From an uncultured Pseudomonadota bacterium (lineage in GTDB: Bacteria > Babelota > Babeliae > Babelales > CAIQNR01): DNA of 64,000 bases. Every line of letters starts with the position of its first letter. Within the stretch, counting starts at the first letter, position 1. Location of the stretch: contig CAZQDJ010000001.1 in NCBI GenBank assembly GCA_964592275.1, positions 4,770-68,769 on the forward strand, in the 5' to 3' direction. Under the pieces are notes generated by a model. The model worked only from the letters and a program-made list of their open reading frames with translations. It was not told the DNA's origin and searched no databases. The position numbers and the translations under genes are program-made. Of the stretch, positions 2,241-64,000 are shown in pieces.

Positions 2241-2873
2241 TTATAACTGAGCATGATCAATAATTTTTTTCACATGCTGACGCCACGTATACTGATCAAG
2301 AGCTTTCTTACGTGCATTCATACCTATTTTTTTTCTATCAACATCAGACATACGTACACATAGTAAACATGCATTTACAAACCCCTGAATATCTAACGGA
2401 TTAACCAAAAATCCAACCTGATCTGCAATCATCAAATATTGGTCGTGTAAATCTTTACTATAAATTGCTGGACTTACAATCTCTGCTACTTGCTCAAGGT
2501 CCGATGCAATCACCGGTTTGCCCATACTCATATATTCAAAAAGCTTTGTAGGAGAACCAAAAAAACGTGTTCCATCATTATTTGATTGCGTTGGACATAA
2601 AAAAATATCGCATTGAGCAAGATATGCAGGAGCTTCTTCTGGAAGAATTTTTCCTGTAAAAGTAACGTATTCTAATAAACCCTGTTCTTGCAAAGAATAT
2701 TCAAGTGACGCACGACCTATCCCATCACCCATCAGAAGGAAATAAACATTTTTTTCAGCCGCAATAAGAACTGGGATAATTTTCTCCAAAACACTAATCC
2801 CATGCCACTGCCCAAAAGTCCCAATGAAACCGAAAGTGATTTTTTTACCTAAAGAATTCATAATTTTTAGCAC
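2241..2873 (-). CDS. GT4-family (GT-B) glycosyltransferase, C-terminal donor-binding half only
   Basis: 210-aa ORF with a GTG at 2873 and an ATG at 2861. It begins at the linker (NSLGKKITFGFIGTFGQWHG) and contains FGSPTKLFEYMSMGKPVIAS (E-x7-E-like region). No N-terminal Rossmann domain is present. The matching N-half lies at 14767..15396. Confidence 0.7.
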   Translation of the reverse strand: MLKIMNSLGKKITFGFIGTFGQWHGISVLEKIIPVLIAAEKNVYFLLMGDGIGRASLEYSLQEQGLLEYVTFTGKILPEEAPAYLAQCDIFLCPTQSNNDGTRFFGSPTKLFEYMSMGKPVIASDLEQVAEIVSPAIYSKDLHDQYLMIADQVGFLVNPLDIQGFVNACLLCVRMSDVDRKKIGMNARKKALDQYTWRQHVKKIIDHAQL

Positions 2874-3387
2874 GCATAACAGGCAAAAATGTAGAATCTT
2901 TTTCGCTCACTATTGGATTCTTGCATGGCCATTGAATGTTAAGATCAGGATCATTCCAAACAACTCCTGATTCATGAGCTGCGTTATAATATTGCGTGCA
3001 CTTATAATTCATAATGACCTCATCACTCAACACATAAAAGCCATGCGCAAATCCAGGCGGCATATATAATTGACGAGGCAGATCACTCGCAAGTACCAAA
3101 GAAAAATATTTTTGAAAGGTCGTTGAATAAGGTCTAAGATCAACTACTACATCGAAAATAGAACCTTGTAAAACGGTCACCAGTTGTCCCTGATTTTTTT
3201 GATAATGCAATCCTCTTAATACATTTTTTTTCGATACAGAAATATTATCTTGCAAAAAAGATTCTTGTATTCCCATTTCTTTATACTGATTTTCTCGCCA
3301 GCTTTCGTAAAACAACCCCCGCTCATCACAATAAATCTTTGGTTTTATAATAACCAGTCCGTCAAAACCAGTTTGAATAGTATTCAT
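2845..3387 (-). CDS. rmlC: dTDP-4-dehydrorhamnose 3,5-epimerase
   Basis: 180 aa. DERGLFYESWR, RGLHYQ and GFAHGF cupin motifs. Adjacent to rmlA and rmlB. Confidence 0.9.
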   Translation of the reverse strand: MNTIQTGFDGLVIIKPKIYCDERGLFYESWRENQYKEMGIQESFLQDNISVSKKNVLRGLHYQKNQGQLVTVLQGSIFDVVVDLRPYSTTFQKYFSLVLASDLPRQLYMPPGFAHGFYVLSDEVIMNYKCTQYYNAAHESGVVWNDPDLNIQWPCKNPIVSEKDSTFLPVMRAKNYEFFR

Positions 3388-4263: not shown

Positions 4264-5298
4264 TTATCCTAATCCAATCCTTTTTCGAGCTTCAACTTTA
4301 CATCCAACTTGAGTGTAATGATCCAAATACCATTGCACCGTTTTCCGCAATCCATCTTTAAAAGATATCTGTGGTTTCCACCCTGTATCGCTTTTTAACA
4401 ATGAAGCATCTGTCGCATACCTAAAATCATGTCCTGGTCGATCAGAAACAAACGTTATCAATTCTTTGTAAGAAGTAAATAAGCTATATGGTCTCAGTTC
4501 ATCAAGCAGTTCGCATATCGTTTCAACTAAAGAAAGATTAGTTCTTTCATTATCCGATCCTACGCAATAGGAAGACCCAATGTTACCCCATTCAATAAGT
4601 GAGTACAGCGCCCGCACATGATCATCTACATACAGCCAATCCCGTATCTGTTCGCCATTTCCATACACAGGAAGGTTCTTTAATTCACACGCATTAAGAA
4701 TGGTAAGTGGAATAAGTTTTTCTGGGTACTGTTTTGGGCCATAGTTATTGGAAGAATTTACAATGATAGTCGGTAGTCCATACGTCTTGTGGTACGAGCG
4801 AACCAAATGATCAGAAGATGCTTTTGATGCCGCATAAGGAGAATTTGGTCGATAGGGCATTGACTCATTAAACTTTCCCTCAGCCCCTAGCGCTCCAAAA
4901 ACCTCATCTGTCGAAAGATGAACAAAACGAAATGAATCTTTGAGAGGAGATTTTTTATAATAACTAAGTACTGCATTGAGTACGGTATACGTCCCCATAA
5001 CATTAGCTTTTATAAAATCATCGGGACAATCTATCGAACGATCTACATGCGATTCTGCAGCCATATGAATAACAACTTCTGGTTGATGTTGAACCAAAAT
5101 TGAATCTAATGCAGGCCCATTGCAGATATCTTCTTTATAAAAAAAATGATTTTTATGATTTTTATATTCACCAAAATTTTCAAGATTTCCAGCATAGGTT
5201 AACAAGTCAATAGTGATGACTTGATGGCCTTTTTCAAGCATAGAACAAACAAAATTCGACCCTATAAACCCAGCACCACCAGTAACAAGAATTTTCAT
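4264..5298 (-). CDS. rmlB: dTDP-glucose 4,6-dehydratase
   Basis: 344 aa. MKILVTGGAGFIGSNF Rossmann motif and the YAASKASSD (YxxxK) catalytic motif. Confidence 0.92.
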   Translation of the reverse strand: MKILVTGGAGFIGSNFVCSMLEKGHQVITIDLLTYAGNLENFGEYKNHKNHFFYKEDICNGPALDSILVQHQPEVVIHMAAESHVDRSIDCPDDFIKANVMGTYTVLNAVLSYYKKSPLKDSFRFVHLSTDEVFGALGAEGKFNESMPYRPNSPYAASKASSDHLVRSYHKTYGLPTIIVNSSNNYGPKQYPEKLIPLTILNACELKNLPVYGNGEQIRDWLYVDDHVRALYSLIEWGNIGSSYCVGSDNERTNLSLVETICELLDELRPYSLFTSYKELITFVSDRPGHDFRYATDASLLKSDTGWKPQISFKDGLRKTVQWYLDHYTQVGCKVEARKRIGLG

Positions 5299-17403: not shown

Positions 17404-17466
17404 GTCATTCCCAGCTTGCACTAGCAAGTAGGTAGGGGAATCTTTGGCGTACCTATCAAGTCCTTT
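17404..17466 (+). repeat. structured repeat, copy D (GTCATTCCCAG...GGGGAATC variant)
   Basis: GTCATTCCCAG-CTTGC ACTA GCAAG-TAGGTAGGGGAATC, followed by GGCGTACCTATCAAGTCCT. Homologous to the copies at 62.3-62.8 kb. Confidence 0.6.
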
Positions 17467-17491: not shown

Positions 17492-17528
17492 GATCCCCGT
17501 ACCGTTCACTCCGTTCTCTGGGGATGAC
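17492..17528 (-). repeat. structured repeat, copy E (minimal 37-nt form)
   Basis: The reverse complement reads GTCATCCCCAGAGAACGGAGTGAACGGTACGGGGATC. It overlaps the last 8 codons and the stop of ORF 17506..18912. Confidence 0.65.
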
Positions 17529-18912
17529 ACGTTTTACTATTACGTCGCTGAAAATGACACTTATACATTTTATACAAACTTAAAATACCTTGTGCTGCAA
17601 GTATCAATAATAACGGTTCAAATAAAATGCGGTATCTTCCAGCGCCATAAAAGCCCGTTACTGCAGAAAAACACCCAATTACACAGAAGAAAAAAATCAG
17701 AAGTTCATACAATCCTTTTTGATACCAGTCTTTTATTGCCCATGCACCAAAGAACCATTTTAAACCGTTCATTACGGCTTCAAAAAGCATGAGTGACCCA
17801 ACAAATGGATTTCTGAATGCCCACGCAAAATAGCTATAAACTTGCGCAAAAAGCGATCCTTGTAATTCATGAAAAGGGATGATGTTCCCGCGCATTCCTG
17901 AATCGAAAAGAAGCTGTAACTGAACTGAATATAATCCAAAAAAAGTTTTTGAAATATTCTGAAGATACATCTTTAAAACAATAAAGGGATGATCTAAACA
18001 TGTTTCAAAAAAAAGCTTTTTTAAAGGAATCCAATATTCTTGCTGAAAAGTCGAATAACGAATATCCCCTAACGTTCTCAATTCTGAAACTATTTCCAAA
18101 ACAGGTCTTTTTTGTAGCTGTGCCTGAATAACTGCATGAAACCAATGATAAAGACCTCCCTCTACCAAAAAAGAAAGTTTGTAACACCCAAAAACCATCC
18201 CATTTCTGATGATGTACCACATAATAGGAATATAAAATGCTCCACAAAAATAAGCATAATCACCCCATGTCACTGAAAGTCGAATCACACGAGAAAGAAC
18301 AAAAAAACAAAACGCTAAACACCACGGGAAAAATAAAGCGGTCGGTTTTACTAGAACAGAAAGACCAAGGAAAAAGCCTGCTAAAACAAGATTGATCCTT
18401 TTTTTTGTATAATAAAAGAGAGCACACTGTTCAAAAAAAACAGTTACCAAAAAAAGTAATAAAGTATCTGCCAACATAAATTGCGGGTACACAAAAAAAG
18501 CCCCATCAACTAATGCAAGTGCAAAAACAATACGCGCACATGTCCGTCCACACAAAAGAAAAGCTGTCTGAGCTGTTGAGAAAATAGAAAACAACGCTAG
18601 CAAAACCTGTAGTGCAATTACGAGCCAAAGATCTTCTCCATAATCTCGGTAGATTATCCCCAAGAAAAAATGATATCCCCGTGTATGAACAGGAAGGAAA
18701 CCATCAGGCTCACAAACATTTCCTGTCTTTACAAAGTTGCGAGCAACTCGATCGTAAGCAGAAGAATCAACGTCATAATGACCATCTTGAAAGCTATACG
18801 AATAAAGCCCATATGAAAATGCCACAAAAATGATTGATCCAACCGTTGAAAAAAACTTATTCTCCGTAAGAAAATTCTTTATTTCCGCCACCTTTGCATA
18901 CCAATTCGTCAA
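17506..18912 (-). CDS. polytopic membrane protein, GT-C (ArnT/PMT-like) glycosyltransferase candidate
   Basis: 468 aa with more than 10 hydrophobic segments. The first loop (DVDSSAYDRVARNF) is reminiscent of ArnT/PMT_2 enzymes. The C-terminal TCHPQRTE* is encoded by repeat copy E. Confidence 0.5.
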   Translation of the reverse strand: MTNWYAKVAEIKNFLTENKFFSTVGSIIFVAFSYGLYSYSFQDGHYDVDSSAYDRVARNFVKTGNVCEPDGFLPVHTRGYHFFLGIIYRDYGEDLWLVIALQVLLALFSIFSTAQTAFLLCGRTCARIVFALALVDGAFFVYPQFMLADTLLLFLVTVFFEQCALFYYTKKRINLVLAGFFLGLSVLVKPTALFFPWCLAFCFFVLSRVIRLSVTWGDYAYFCGAFYIPIMWYIIRNGMVFGCYKLSFLVEGGLYHWFHAVIQAQLQKRPVLEIVSELRTLGDIRYSTFQQEYWIPLKKLFFETCLDHPFIVLKMYLQNISKTFFGLYSVQLQLLFDSGMRGNIIPFHELQGSLFAQVYSYFAWAFRNPFVGSLMLFEAVMNGLKWFFGAWAIKDWYQKGLYELLIFFFCVIGCFSAVTGFYGAGRYRILFEPLLLILAAQGILSLYKMYKCHFQRRNSKTCHPQRTE

Positions 18913-61468: not shown

Positions 61469-62200
61469 CTACGAAAGAAGAGTTATACATTTCCAAAACC
61501 ACATCCCAATCGAAATAATCAACCAGAGAATACCCATGTGAATCTTATTTACAAACAACATCAAAAGAATAATGGGAACAATAAACATCATCCATTGCAT
61601 GCGATCACCAGAATAAAGTCCAAAAGCCCCTTGTTCGTCTTTAGAAAAATAGAAAAAACCTACATAAAACAAATTTACGATGATGTTAAACGCAGCCAAC
61701 ATACTGTTGAAAAAGATAATATTACGAAGCAACAAAGCCACCACAATCGCAAATGATGATGTTGTCTCATACCCTGGATAGAGTACCGCAGTCCGTGCTT
61801 GGGAAAAACTCAAAAAGAATTCAAGTGGATCAGAACCAAAGAGAAGAACAAAACAAAATAATGCCAAGAGAGCCATTATAATATTTGCAAAGGCATCGGA
61901 TAAATAAGCAGTAACCATTTTTGGAACCCGCCATTTACCATAAAAATTATGTGGATTGAGAGGAATATACTGACCAAACCCAAATGGTGTAAGCCCAAGC
62001 GCCATAATGGCTAGCCAAAAAAAACTTACGTGCGCCATAGGATTCAGAGTGAGAAAACCTAATTTCTCCGGAGTATCATCACCCATTTTTTCTGCTACCC
62101 ACGCTCTAAAACATCCAATAATCGGGATAATAGAAAAATAAGTGAGCAAAACAATTAACGTATCGATCATTAACTCTGTTGCTTGAACGGTCATACCCAC
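61469..62200 (-). CDS. site-2-protease (M50)-like membrane protein lacking the HExxH motif
   Basis: 243 aa. IIGCFRAWVAEKMGDDTPEKLGFLTLNPMAHV aligns with the family pattern HEFAHAWVA..LGD.T....GRLTLNPLAH, but HEFAH is replaced by GCFRA. Confidence 0.5.
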   Translation of the reverse strand: MGMTVQATELMIDTLIVLLTYFSIIPIIGCFRAWVAEKMGDDTPEKLGFLTLNPMAHVSFFWLAIMALGLTPFGFGQYIPLNPHNFYGKWRVPKMVTAYLSDAFANIIMALLALFCFVLLFGSDPLEFFLSFSQARTAVLYPGYETTSSFAIVVALLLRNIIFFNSMLAAFNIIVNLFYVGFFYFSKDEQGAFGLYSGDRMQWMMFIVPIILLMLFVNKIHMGILWLIISIGMWFWKCITLLS

Positions 62201-62290
62201 AAAAGGCTCCCCATTAGTTTTGTCCTACTATTTTTATCTTTACTGCAGTTTAAAAAGATTTGCCGGAAGGGTCAAACTCATGCAAAAATT

Positions 62291-62431
62291 GGGTTATCTT
62301 AAAATTAATGGTAAATAAAAAGTTAATAAAAATTCCCGTCATCCCCAGAGAACGGTAGTCACAGCAGTGCCAAAGGCACTGTCTAGACGAAGTGAACGTA
62401 CGGGGACCAAGACGTAACAAGAAGAAGTCAT
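62291..62431 (+). repeat. structured repeat, copy A (full-length unit)
   Basis: GGTTATCTTAAAATTAAT box, then CCCGTCATCCCCAGAGAACGG, internal hairpin CAGTGCC-AAA-GGCACTG, AGTGAACGTACGGGGACC, and AAGACGTAACAAGAAGAAGTCAT. Confidence 0.7.
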
Positions 62432-62445
62432 AATAAAATATAAAG

Positions 62446-62579
62446 TTAGAGCTTATCCGAAAATTAATAGATACATTAAAAAAGTCCCGTCATCCCCAGC
62501 GATAGGAGTAGCCACGTCCGAATGGACGAGTGGCGTATGACTGAGCGTTGGGGATCCAGTTGTTACAGGAAGAAGTCAT
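62446..62579 (+). repeat. structured repeat, copy B (full-length unit)
   Basis: TTAGAGCTTATCCGAAAATTAA box, then CCCGTCATCCCCAGCGATAGG, internal hairpin GCCACGTCC-GAAT-GGACGAGTGGC, GACTGAGCGTTGGGGATCC, and AGTTGTTACAGGAAGAAGTCAT. Confidence 0.7.
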
Positions 62580-62629
62580 TTTTTTGATTGTATAGAGATG
62601 GATAATCGATACTAGATAGCATTTGAACT

Positions 62630-62781
62630 ATGAGGACTTTGTCTTGTTACGTCTGGATCCCCGTACCGTTCACTCAGTCTAACGAAACATTTTATGTTTC
62701 GCCGCGACTTCGTTCTCTGGGGATGACAGTAAAAAAACAAACTTAAAAGATGGATTGATTTAATTTTCGGATAAGCTCTAA
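62630..62781 (-). repeat. structured repeat, copy C (full-length unit, inverted relative to B)
   Basis: The reverse complement reads TTAGAGCTTATCCGAAAATTAA...CTGTCATCCCCAGAGAACGA, internal hairpin CGAAACAT-AAA-ATGTTTCG, GACTGAGTGAACGGTACGGGGATCC, AGACGTAACAAGACAAAGTCCTCAT. Confidence 0.7.
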
Positions 62782-62841
62782 AAATAGAAGAATGACAGTT
62801 GAAAAATAACCAACTCATTTTCTAAAAGAAGGAGAATTGTT

Positions 62842-64000
62842 ATGACCGCATTCAAAGAACAAAAAAAACAATCACCACAATGGAAATGGACTCTTGCCGC
62901 TACCATAGTACTGGCAACCGTAACTATCATTTCTTACTACCCATCCCTTTCATATAATTTTCAGTTTGATGACATTTTTAATATTCAAAAATTCTTTCAC
63001 TTACGTATTAATGATTTCAAATCGTGGGTATTTGGTGGTAGTAGGTGGATCAGTTATGTGCTCAATGCGGTGCATTACAAGATCGGAAAACATAATCCCT
63101 TCGTCTACCGACGCACCAATATGCTCTTCCATGTAACAGCTGGCCTTCTTCTCTTTTTTGTAACCTACTATGCCCTTTTAAATCTTAAAAAATATGCTTC
63201 ACTGGTAAAAAAAGCCTTACCAGTCGCCTTCTTTACCGCGCTTCTTTTTTTACTGCACCCTGTCCAAACACAAACAGTTTCATATGTTATTCAGGGGCAA
63301 CTAGAAGGGCTTGCCACTCTTTTTATGATAGCGATTATGCTTGTGTATTTTTTCTATCAAAAAGCTCAATCATGGAATGTTAAAGCACCTCTTCTTATAC
63401 TCATTACCATTCTTGGGATATTTTCTTGTGGTACCAAAGAAATTGCCATTCTTTCTCCTTTAATGCTCTTACTTTTTGATTGGTTTTTTATCTCTCAAGG
63501 CAGTTTTACAGAATTAAAAAAGAAATGGCTTTTTTTTACAAGCTATACCGCACTTATCGCTTTTCAATATGTTCGTTATTTAAATTTTCATTTTCTTAAA
63601 ACTTCTTTTTTAGGAACGGCGGTACTACCAAATAATGTTGGTAATGTAATTACTGCCAATGCACAACAAACCATTAATCCACTCACGTACTGCATGTCTC
63701 AATTTAAAGTAGTAGTACATTACATTGTTATGTTTCTCTGGCCTTTTAATATTAGCGTCGACTATGACTGGAAAATGCCATCAAGTTTCTTTACCACTGA
63801 AGTACTAGCTCCTCTTTTCTTTCTCCTCTGTCTATTTACAGGAACACTTTTTTTATTGCGTAAAGATACAACACACCCTGTTGCTTTTTGTTCATTATGG
63901 TTCTTTATTGGGCTTGCCCCACGCTCAACTATCATCCCTTCAACAGAATTAGTTGCTGATTACAAAACCTATTTTAGCTCTTTTGGCATTTTTTTATTAC
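62842..64000 (+). CDS. polytopic membrane protein, TMTC/PMT-like GT-C glycosyltransferase candidate (partial, runs off window)
   Basis: AAGGAG RBS 8 nt upstream of the ATG at 62842. I read the frame codon by codon and it stays open to position 64000. SYNFQFDDIF, LLHPVQTQTVSYVIQG and many TM segments resemble DUF1736/PMT_2-type proteins. Confidence 0.6.
   Translation, partial: MTAFKEQKKQSPQWKWTLAATIVLATVTIISYYPSLSYNFQFDDIFNIQKFFHLRINDFKSWVFGGSRWISYVLNAVHYKIGKHNPFVYRRTNMLFHVTAGLLLFFVTYYALLNLKKYASLVKKALPVAFFTALLFLLHPVQTQTVSYVIQGQLEGLATLFMIAIMLVYFFYQKAQSWNVKAPLLILITILGIFSCGTKEIAILSPLMLLLFDWFFISQGSFTELKKKWLFFTSYTALIAFQYVRYLNFHFLKTSFLGTAVLPNNVGNVITANAQQTINPLTYCMSQFKVVVHYIVMFLWPFNISVDYDWKMPSSFFTTEVLAPLFFLLCLFTGTLFLLRKDTTHPVAFCSLWFFIGLAPRSTIIPSTELVADYKTYFSSFGIFLL

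Follow-up and report, generated by a model that had tools for sequence, protein, structure and literature searches.

The stretch of DNA analysed here (hereafter the window, 64,000 nucleotides in full) contains three copies of a structured repeat unit, A, B and C, in the 640-bp divergent spacer between an M50-like gene and a 'GT-C' gene, and two shorter copies, D and E, near 17.4 kb. The units are probably an expanded form of the Ssn-related motifs (SRM), hairpin repeats associated with Ssn nucleases of the GIY-YIG fold. Pfam gave no match for the products of either flanking gene and these gene labels are provisional; the orthologue of the 'GT-C' gene in the related locus L045 has C-terminal TPR repeats. 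Units A, B and C were placed by profile searches (nhmmer) and scored with a covariance model, and the helices P1, P2 and P3 named in the list are defined below.

62291..62441, plus strand: unit A, a full-length unit of the putative expanded SRM type (nhmmer 62293-62441, E=2.4e-34; covariance model 110.3 bits; single-stranded DNA (ssDNA) fold z=-2.2). Its hairpin domain, 62338-62408 (GTCATCCCC...GGGGACC), plus strand, holds the nested hairpin CAGTGCC-AAA-GGCACTG; the end of the 3' tail is ...AAGAAGTCAT.
62444..62590, plus strand: unit B, of type 2, with P2 and P3 fused into one long bulged hairpin (nhmmer E=2.2e-21; covariance model 62.1 bits; ssDNA fold z=-3.1). Hairpin domain 62489-62556, plus strand, with GCCACGTCC-GAAT-GGACGAGTGGC and a 2-nt bulge; box 1 at 62446-62467.
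62580..62629, no strand: spacer between B and C, 50 bp, partly kept in the spacers of the L016 and L042 pairs (..AGATGRAT..TACTAGATAG..).
62620..62784, minus strand: unit C, a full-length unit (nhmmer E=1.8e-35; covariance model 109.6 bits; ssDNA fold z=-2.4). Hairpin domain 62656-62727, minus strand, with the nested hairpin CGAAACAT-AAA-ATGTTTCG; box 1 at 62760-62781; tail variant GTCCTCAT.
17404..17442, plus strand: copy D, a short 39-nt hairpin of SRM size, with the stem ATTCCC/GGGAAT and a loop containing CTTGC-ACTA-GCAAG.
17492..17528, minus strand: copy E, a short 37-nt form with P1 and both joiners (AGAGAACGG, AGTGAACGGTAC) and without the nested P2-P3 (covariance model 40.7 bits).

An earlier note, written from the letters of the window, had placed units A and B on the plus strand and unit C on the minus strand, with B and C convergent across 50 bp, and this arrangement was confirmed. 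All the internal hairpins that it quoted for copies A to D are present, copy E has none, and the double change that it reported in the outer stem of copy D (ATTCCC/GGGAAT) is real; the same position varies across the 40 copies described below. Box 1 (TTAGAGCTTATCCGAAAATTAA) is identical in B and C, as had been claimed, and forms a perfect 22-nt inverted repeat (62446-62467 versus 62760-62781) that had no match in shuffled sequence; it was found in part of the copies only. The sequence GTCATCCCCAG, with at most one mismatch, occurs five times in the window, exactly in A, B, C, D and E, against 0.30 expected. A generic hairpin pattern, GTC[AG]T plus a 4-bp stem ... A[CT]C, was observed five times in the window versus 2.2 in shuffles, which is not significant alone, and it brought up no copies besides A-E over the window. 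The positional orthologue of unit A is L045 8202-8352, a relative of unit B with an equal hairpin type lies at L016 19-125, and a convergent pair resembling D and E is also present at L045 8074-8109 and 8159-8195. The stem of copy D is identical to that of the Neisseria NTS/dRS3 repeat. The open reading frame (ORF) 17506-18912, minus strand, takes its last 8 codons and its stop codon from copy E (...TCHPQRTE*; window 17506-17531) and encodes a 468-aa membrane-like protein with no Pfam match; the C-terminus of this protein was rewritten by the copy E insertion.

Homologues of the tyrosyl-tRNA synthetase (TyrRS) of the window place its source in Candidatus Dependentiae/Babeliales, and relatives of the units were sought in a set of Candidatus Dependentiae genomes and metagenome contigs (loci numbered L0xx). 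A profile hidden Markov model, followed by the covariance model, recovered 40 units at E<=1e-6 in the window and 15 related loci, and weaker short forms besides; the scan of relatives with a covariance model, which had been proposed as a check, did therefore yield more copies. When one genome per species was scanned with a 17-mer, 35 matches were obtained, of which 32 were single chance matches in unrelated phyla, and true copies were seen only in three contigs of the metagenome-assembled genome 'bacterium ZH-3nov15-28'. A gapped-pattern scan of metagenome contigs returned ten loci, nine with true copies; locus L038 (GC content 52%), from the metagenome scan, was set aside as a chance match or an unrelated hairpin. 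A literature search on repeats or MITEs (miniature transposable elements with inverted repeats) of Dependentiae and on the core sequence found nothing relevant. The Logan short-read contig L001, which carries the TyrRS gene of the window, breaks off inside unit B (L001 1-30 corresponds to window about 62440-62470), as is expected of a dispersed repeat.

The consensus core of the units reads (AAATCAAT) GTCAT [C/T]CCC AG-AGAACGG-(T)AGTC-GCAG-[variable hairpin]-G(G/A)C(T/C)A-GAC-(G)GAGTGAACGG(TAC)-GGG[G/A]A [T/C]C-CAGACGTAACAAGAAAAAGTCAT-AATTTT, and its parts are as follows.

P1: outer stem, T[C/T/G]CCC paired with GGG[G/A/C]A.
P2: 3 bp, GTC/GAC, also GCC/GGC, GTT/AAC and ATC/GAT.
P3: hairpin of 6-13 bp, very different in sequence among copies, with pairing retained.
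J1 (AGAGAACGG) and J2 (GAGTGAACGGTAC): nearly invariant joiners, a direct repeat (AG[A/T]GAACGG) around P2-P3.
Type-2 units: unit B and its relatives, with a single long bulged hairpin in place of P2-P3.
Short forms: copy E, with P1 and both joiners and no P2-P3.

The hairpin is preceded by an AT-rich, semi-conserved 5' region and followed by a conserved 3' tail of 25 nt that ends in a second GTCAT. The stem measures 5-7 bp, the loop 19-65 nt, the hairpin domain 68-83 nt (68-72 in A, B and C) and the whole unit 130-165 bp. Invariant in all 30 full units are GTC, T, CCC with the following A, and GG..A.C.A. The GTC stands before the palindrome in 30/30 full units and is followed by AT or GT, all five copies of the window having GTCAT. 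The C after GGGRA(T/C) is likewise invariant, and CAG comes next in most copies.

The earlier note had taken conserved boxes and covarying stems as signs of selection, acting on a nucleic acid that folds or on a module bound by protein. Covariation was counted over 16 pairs in the model-fitted alignment of the 40 copies, with shuffled partners (500 shuffles) and a 3' partner slid by 1-3 columns as controls. All of these counts lean toward structure, since they come from related copies in an alignment that had been fitted to it. Paired cells made up 96.0% of the total versus 78.9% with the partners shuffled. Changes on both sides were seen in 111 cells, against 32.5 in the shuffles, and none of the 500 shuffles reached 111. 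Compensatory change was seen in 13/16 pairs and all three stems covary, whereas sliding the 3' partner left only 26-51% of the cells paired. P1 is paired in 98% of cells; its second position is C-G in 22 copies, U-A in 16, G-C in 1 and unpaired in one, and the exact stem TTCCC/GGGAA is shared by copy D and 16 other copies. Four Watson-Crick variants of P1 were found (TCCCC/GGGGA, TTCCC/GGGAA, TGCCC/GGGCA and, in L057, TTCTC/GAGAA), and such a number of distinct variants would be hard to explain without structure. In the ssDNA folds of units A, B and C, P1 forms and encloses the nested hairpin (z -2.2 to -3.1). The central proposal of selection on a structured element is upheld by these counts. 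Two other explanations of the core were rejected. An antisense small ORF of 29-42 codons, in which the 3' GTCAT would provide the ATG and the 5' GTCAT the TGA, loses its frame across hairpin-domain lengths of 50, 51, 53, 54, 55, 56 and 65 nt; a hammerhead or group II domain V did not fit the core when compared by eye and had no Rfam support.

The units occupy intergenic DNA, which they nearly fill, in both orientations. Most of them form convergent pairs (plus, then minus) with the tails facing each other across 30-90 bp. The solo units with a known downstream gene all point toward it (6/6; L034, L040, L044, L041 and two in L046), four at 10-30 nt upstream of the start and two at about 135-200 nt. 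The functions of these genes are unrelated (glyA, efp, a cupin, secreted proteins and a likely murJ, the last judged from its N-terminal sequence only). The spacer between the TPR/'GT-C' gene and the M50-like gene was then compared among relatives.

L047, L049, L052, L055 and L056: 158-211 bp, no units.
P0003 contig: 282 bp (length only).
L045: about 530 bp, four copies.
Window: 640 bp, three copies.

The orthologous spacer is thus unit-free in five relatives and filled in the window and in L045, the comparison of presence and absence that had been suggested earlier; because it is unit-free in relatives, the units are, judged from these alignments, insertions in a sub-lineage. The flanks of this spacer are too diverged between relatives to place the exact insertion junctions or any target-site duplication. 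Loci L047-L051 have a GC content of 43-46%, a TyrRS identity of 83-84% and no units in 14-21 kb, while the GC content of the window and L045 is 37-39%. L052 is more distant (77% TyrRS identity, GC 36%) yet carries units, so that the distribution is patchy relative to TyrRS similarity. The sole promoter-like site of the spacer, TTGACC-N17-TAAACT, lies at 62275-62247 on the minus strand, upstream of the M50-like gene; it has the sigma-70-like promoter form used by these Dependentiae. It is kept in the spacers of relatives that lack units and in L045 (L045, L047, L049, L052), and this conservation next to the M50-like gene indicates that it is native.

In L045 the outer copies of the spacer match C and A, and the inner slot, where the window has B, is taken by the D-like/E-like pair. 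Window 62332-62440 and L045 8199-8319 are near-identical outside P3, and the P3 hairpins are unrelated: 7 bp in the window (CAGTGCC/GGCACTG) versus 13 bp in L045 (CCCTTCATAAAGA/TCTTTATGAAGGG). Near-identical orthologous units with unrelated P3 imply, as far as the two sequences can tell, hairpin replacement, through gene conversion between copies or some targeted process.

The decisive lead to the identity of the units came from the genes caught between convergent copies. A 99-aa protein with GIY-YIG as its only Pfam domain is encoded between convergent units in L039, L045, L057 and L058/L059. In L039 the cassette consists of a unit at 4609-4719 (plus), the gene at 4730-5029 and a unit at 5042-5151 (minus); the L057 and L058/L059 cassettes were found via a homologue search, and L057 comes from run SRR12762304, which also holds the TyrRS contig of the window. 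Searched against Neisseria gonorrhoeae chromosomes (tblastn), the Dependentiae protein gave one match in each, with 50-52% identity and E=1e-23. The matched ORF encodes 94 aa, and nine canonical NTS lie around it, within about 900 bp to each side; when the L057 protein was compared with it by BLASTP, the identity was 49% (E=2e-33), and overall the Dependentiae proteins are 49-52% identical to it over >90% of the length. The control locus from Neisseria (L060) was NZ_CP119140.1 1880278-1884562. Two 2.17-Mb N. gonorrhoeae chromosomes are labelled 'plasmids' in the plasmid collection, a labelling error of the source.

Chenal et al. (Nat Commun 2025; PMC11893778) described SsnA of Neisseria meningitidis, a protein of 94 aa with GIY-YIG as its single domain. 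Its target is the oriented hairpin repeat NTS (CGTCATTCCCGCGMAVGCGGGAATCYRG), which it binds strand-specifically and only as ssDNA, not as double-stranded DNA or RNA, and it cuts a few nucleotides upstream of this repeat (PMC11893778). Cleavage is governed by the three nucleotides that precede the palindrome, and binding depends most on the C that follows it; the loop can be removed or extended (PMC11893778). Changing the palindrome with the hairpin kept abolishes the activity in Neisseria (PMC11893778). SsnA cleavage lowers the integration of transforming DNA that bears NTS (PMC11893778). Homologues of ssnA across phyla are flanked by SRM, inverted repeats of 20-50 nt; the protein that goes with them, of about 94 aa, has GIY-YIG as its single domain and falls in the cd10448 clade, and species rich in SRM are enriched in symbionts or intracellular bacteria (PMC11893778).

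The conserved frame of the units, 5'-GTCAT-T(C/T)CCC ... GGG(G/A)A-(T/C)C-CAG, is that of the Neisseria NTS/dRS3 (CGTCATTCCC...GGGAATCYRG), and direct alignment of a Neisseria NTS with copies D and E gave a common frame. Like SRM, the units have the oriented 5' flank HGTCWY before the palindrome, a palindromic stem that forms a hairpin (ATTCCC...GGGAAT in Neisseria) and a C directly 3' of the palindrome followed by YNB (ATCYRG in NTS). Repeats stand on both sides of an ssnA homologue in relatives, though not within the window, and the protein agrees with the single-domain GIY-YIG type by size, Pfam and identity to the N. gonorrhoeae ORF. On the basis of the shared frame, the GIY-YIG association and the homology to the N. 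gonorrhoeae ssnA homologue, the gene is filed as a predicted Ssn-family nuclease and the units as SRM-type. We consider it likely, with good confidence, that they are lineage-specific, expanded hairpin repeats of the SRM (Neisseria NTS/dRS3-like) kind, which most probably serve as ssDNA targets of an Ssn nuclease.

Several observations weigh against this assignment. The published SRM pattern, HGTCWYN(0-2)YYVSBRHN(0-5)WNVSBRGN(0-2)RNCYNB, had no matches in the window, L039, L045, L041, L046, L016 or L034; on the Neisseria control locus it found 9, i.e. all nine. Copies D and E, with 37-39 nt, are within the SRM size, but their loops exceed N(0-5), and the hairpin domains of A-C reach 68-72 nt. 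P1 covaries freely, unlike the Neisseria palindrome, which implies that the nuclease is less strict in its specificity or has variants that co-evolve. Known Ssn biology does not explain why J1, J2 and the tail are so strongly conserved, and the sense orientation of the 6/6 solo units is not predicted by the Ssn model. In the GTCAT strand 13 G-T wobbles were counted versus 7 A-C mismatches, a ratio that fits a one-strand fold and decides neither which strand folds nor whether it is DNA or RNA. No ssnA homologue was detected by tblastn in the 64-kb window, and an ssnA gene in the window's own genome is indicated only by co-occurrence in one sequencing run.

The earlier note had named a match to an already described family as an outcome that would refute it, and this is partly what was found. 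The SRM family was described in 2025, so the units are not categorically new; the published pattern misses these copies, and what is new here is the architecture (expanded loop, invariant joiners, nested covarying hairpin and conserved 3' tail) in a new phylum. Its candidate of REP/RPE-like palindromic elements was of the right kind and the nearest of its three guesses; the actual frame is that of NTS/SRM with an ssnA-type gene.

If the units are Ssn targets, they would come into play when DNA turns single-stranded, for example in replication, repair or DNA uptake. The strand reading 5'-GTCAT... would then fold, and the single-domain GIY-YIG Ssn nuclease, of roughly 99 aa, would bind a recognition frame made of P1 (A-T[C/T]CCC / GGG[G/A]A-T) with GTC just 5' and C just 3', and nick the ssDNA a few nucleotides upstream of the hairpin. 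The loop, dispensable in Neisseria, is here replaced by a 19-65-nt module of J1, J2, the 3-bp P2 and the fast-evolving, paired P3. Units accumulate as intergenic insertions, often as convergent pairs, with the nuclease gene between matched arms in an arrangement that resembles an insertion sequence (IS). Binding and cleavage of the units by the nuclease are what we infer from this analysis, and the biological consequence could be restriction or shortening of recombining ssDNA (recombination control), repeat spread, or both.

Several features of the cassettes are suggestive of mobility. Cassettes with ssnA were found in four different gene neighbourhoods. In 4/5 cassettes the two arms around a gene match each other best or nearly so (79-84% identity versus a mean of 61%), and the arms of empty pairs usually are not mutual best matches. 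The place of new material is in every case between convergent tails, be it ssnA, RibD_C, unit B in the window or the D/E pair in L045. At L046 2639-3417 a RibD_C/DHFR-like gene for 172 aa (2801-3319) lies between convergent units that are mutual closest relatives at 79% identity, which indicates that unit pairs can enclose cargo other than the nuclease. On either side of the unit-ssnA-unit cassette of L045 stands a copy of the ybeY 3' end, at 269-410 and 1005-1146, a direct duplication of 142 bp with 141/142 positions identical. This is far longer than any transposase target duplication, and it suggests that the cassette was inserted via recombination or a replication-template switch. Beside the duplicated ybeY fragment, at L045 about 235-262 on the minus strand, stands CTGTCATTGCGAGCTTGCGCGGCAACCCC, with a GTCAT head and a TTGC/GCAA stem, which may be a second, different SRM type in that genome. 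L058 and L041 were compared as a possible filled and empty ssnA site, and only the units match at the DNA level.

It is conceivable, although we hold it to be rather unlikely, that cassettes of the unit-ssnA-unit form are active mobile elements of an IS-like kind, mobilised by the 99-aa single-domain GIY-YIG nuclease. Solo units and empty pairs would then be non-autonomous derivatives, like MITEs or REPINs, and the loop module and the tail GTCAT would provide extra signals for recognition or cleavage, absent from the Neisseria NTS. The mobility observations fit this idea without proving it and are suggestive only.

Mobility could also be accounted for without Ssn, if the units were non-autonomous transposable elements of the REP/REPIN-RAYT, IS200/IS605 or DDE MITE type and the GIY-YIG gene a passenger. 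Their status as insertions relative to relatives, the REPIN-like convergent pairs, the perfect 22-nt inverted repeat on the outer side of B and C, which looks like a terminal inverted repeat, and the non-nuclease RibD_C gene carried between matched arms in L046 would all agree with such elements. We nevertheless regard this explanation as improbable. No transposase-like gene stood out beside the units in about 200 kb, where no systematic transposase search was made, and four of the five gene cassettes carry GIY-YIG and one RibD_C. For REP/REPIN-RAYT a Y1/HUH gene flanked by repeats would be expected; the flanked gene is mostly GIY-YIG, no systematic Y1/HUH search having been made. A DDE MITE should have terminal inverted repeats and a target-site duplication, and none of the latter was seen at unit ends in the flanks of 8 pairs; box 1 is present in some copies only, and the two ends of a single unit are unlike and do not form an inverted repeat. 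Besides, it would have to be by coincidence that the invariant bases agree with the NTS frame.

The units could instead be genes or leaders of small structured RNAs, either small RNAs or cis-regulatory 5' leaders, the first candidate of the earlier note. Covariation of all three helices would be expected of such RNAs, the six solo units in sense orientation, four of them 10-30 nt upstream of a start, would be well placed as leaders, and the modest excess of G-U over A-C (13 to 7) and the RNA folds (z -2.4 to -3.8) are in line with it. This candidate was not borne out and we judge it quite improbable. Rfam 15 had no match at the gathering threshold over 64 kb, and at E<=10 only two chance-level matches in 62000-63000, around the array, so that no described RNA family was recognised; no family, tRNA included, reached the gathering score in the window. 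The promoter and terminator scan detected no sigma-70-like promoter or intrinsic terminator inside the units of the window. The units occur in both orientations, mostly as convergent pairs or antisense downstream of genes, and the genes downstream of them are functionally unrelated. Moreover, the invariant positions are those on which a nuclease specific for ssDNA, and not binding RNA, depends (PMC11893778). A riboswitch-type leader was discarded, given the unrelated downstream genes and the fact that most copies are not upstream of genes.

That the array consists of double-stranded DNA sites for a transcription factor or nucleoid protein regulating the two divergent membrane-protein genes, as had also been proposed, is very improbable: its place in a divergent promoter region and its conserved boxes, with GAACGG twice per unit, are compatible with operators, but units also lie beside many unrelated genes and between convergent genes, the orthologous spacer of relatives keeps the native TTGACC-N17-TAAACT promoter with no units, and compensatory stem changes and a hairpin of variable length are unexpected of such sites.

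The assignment to SRM would extend the Ssn/SRM system to Candidatus Dependentiae, obligate intracellular bacteria of protists. It would also mean that SRM can be composite modules of 130-165 bp, and, since the published pattern misses them, surveys of SRM abundance may undercount. The insertion polymorphism and the matched-arm cassettes bear on the question, left open by the authors of the SsnA study, of whether NTS-ssnA-NTS is, or once was, a mobile element (PMC11893778). The natural variation of the units (four P1 variants, invariant 5' GTC and 3' C, tolerance of a 19-65-nt loop) constitutes a data set on the specificity of a 99-aa ssDNA nuclease, which is of interest as a molecular tool. 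On the practical side, the units fragment short-read assemblies of the Dependentiae lineage, as the end of L001 in unit B illustrates.

Among known systems, the RPE, Correia, ERIC and BOX-type families are structured intergenic repeats of 100-150 bp in host-associated bacteria, some of them modular and some inserted at gene ends. Compared by description only, they resemble the present units in size, structure and gene-end insertion (copy E supplies a stop codon), but their definition rests on different consensus sequences or on inverted repeats at the termini. The REP elements (repetitive extragenic palindromes), with BIMEs and with REPINs mobilised by RAYT (Y1 HUH), are likewise short extragenic hairpin repeats recognised as ssDNA, with inverted doublets, a cognate nuclease gene flanked by repeats and compensatory stem evolution. 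Here the associated nuclease has the GIY-YIG fold instead of HUH/Y1, a GTAG-type REP head is absent and the units exceed REP elements three- to fivefold in length.

Neisseria intergenic mosaic elements (NIMEs) are arrays in which dRS3 alternates with repeats of 50-150 bp. In the control locus L060, NTS copies of alternating orientation lie mostly about 150-180 bp apart around ssnA, and the array of the window, with a period of 135-165 bp and mixed orientations, is comparable. In Dependentiae, unlike NIMEs, the DNA between successive P1 stems is one conserved unit and not a set of separate repeat families.

The closest system is SRM/NTS/dRS3 itself. The Dependentiae units differ from it in a loop of 19-65 nt versus a few nt, with invariant joiners and a nested covarying hairpin of their own, in a stem of only 5-7 bp, and in a 25-nt 3' tail, an AT-rich 5' region and box 1, which bring the unit to 130-165 bp versus 20-50 nt. 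The copies also escape the published pattern, P1 tolerates compensatory changes, and activity is here read from sequence. In common with SRM/NTS/dRS3 they have the oriented hairpin, the 5' (C/T)GTCAT flank, the A-T(T/C)CCC / GGG(A/G)A-T stem and the C after the palindrome followed by YRG, as well as an intergenic, clustered distribution in both orientations and a nuclease gene with a repeat on both sides. The proteins of Dependentiae and Neisseria both measure about 95-99 aa, have GIY-YIG as their single domain and share 49-52% identity, and in both cases the hosts of the repeats are symbionts or intracellular bacteria.

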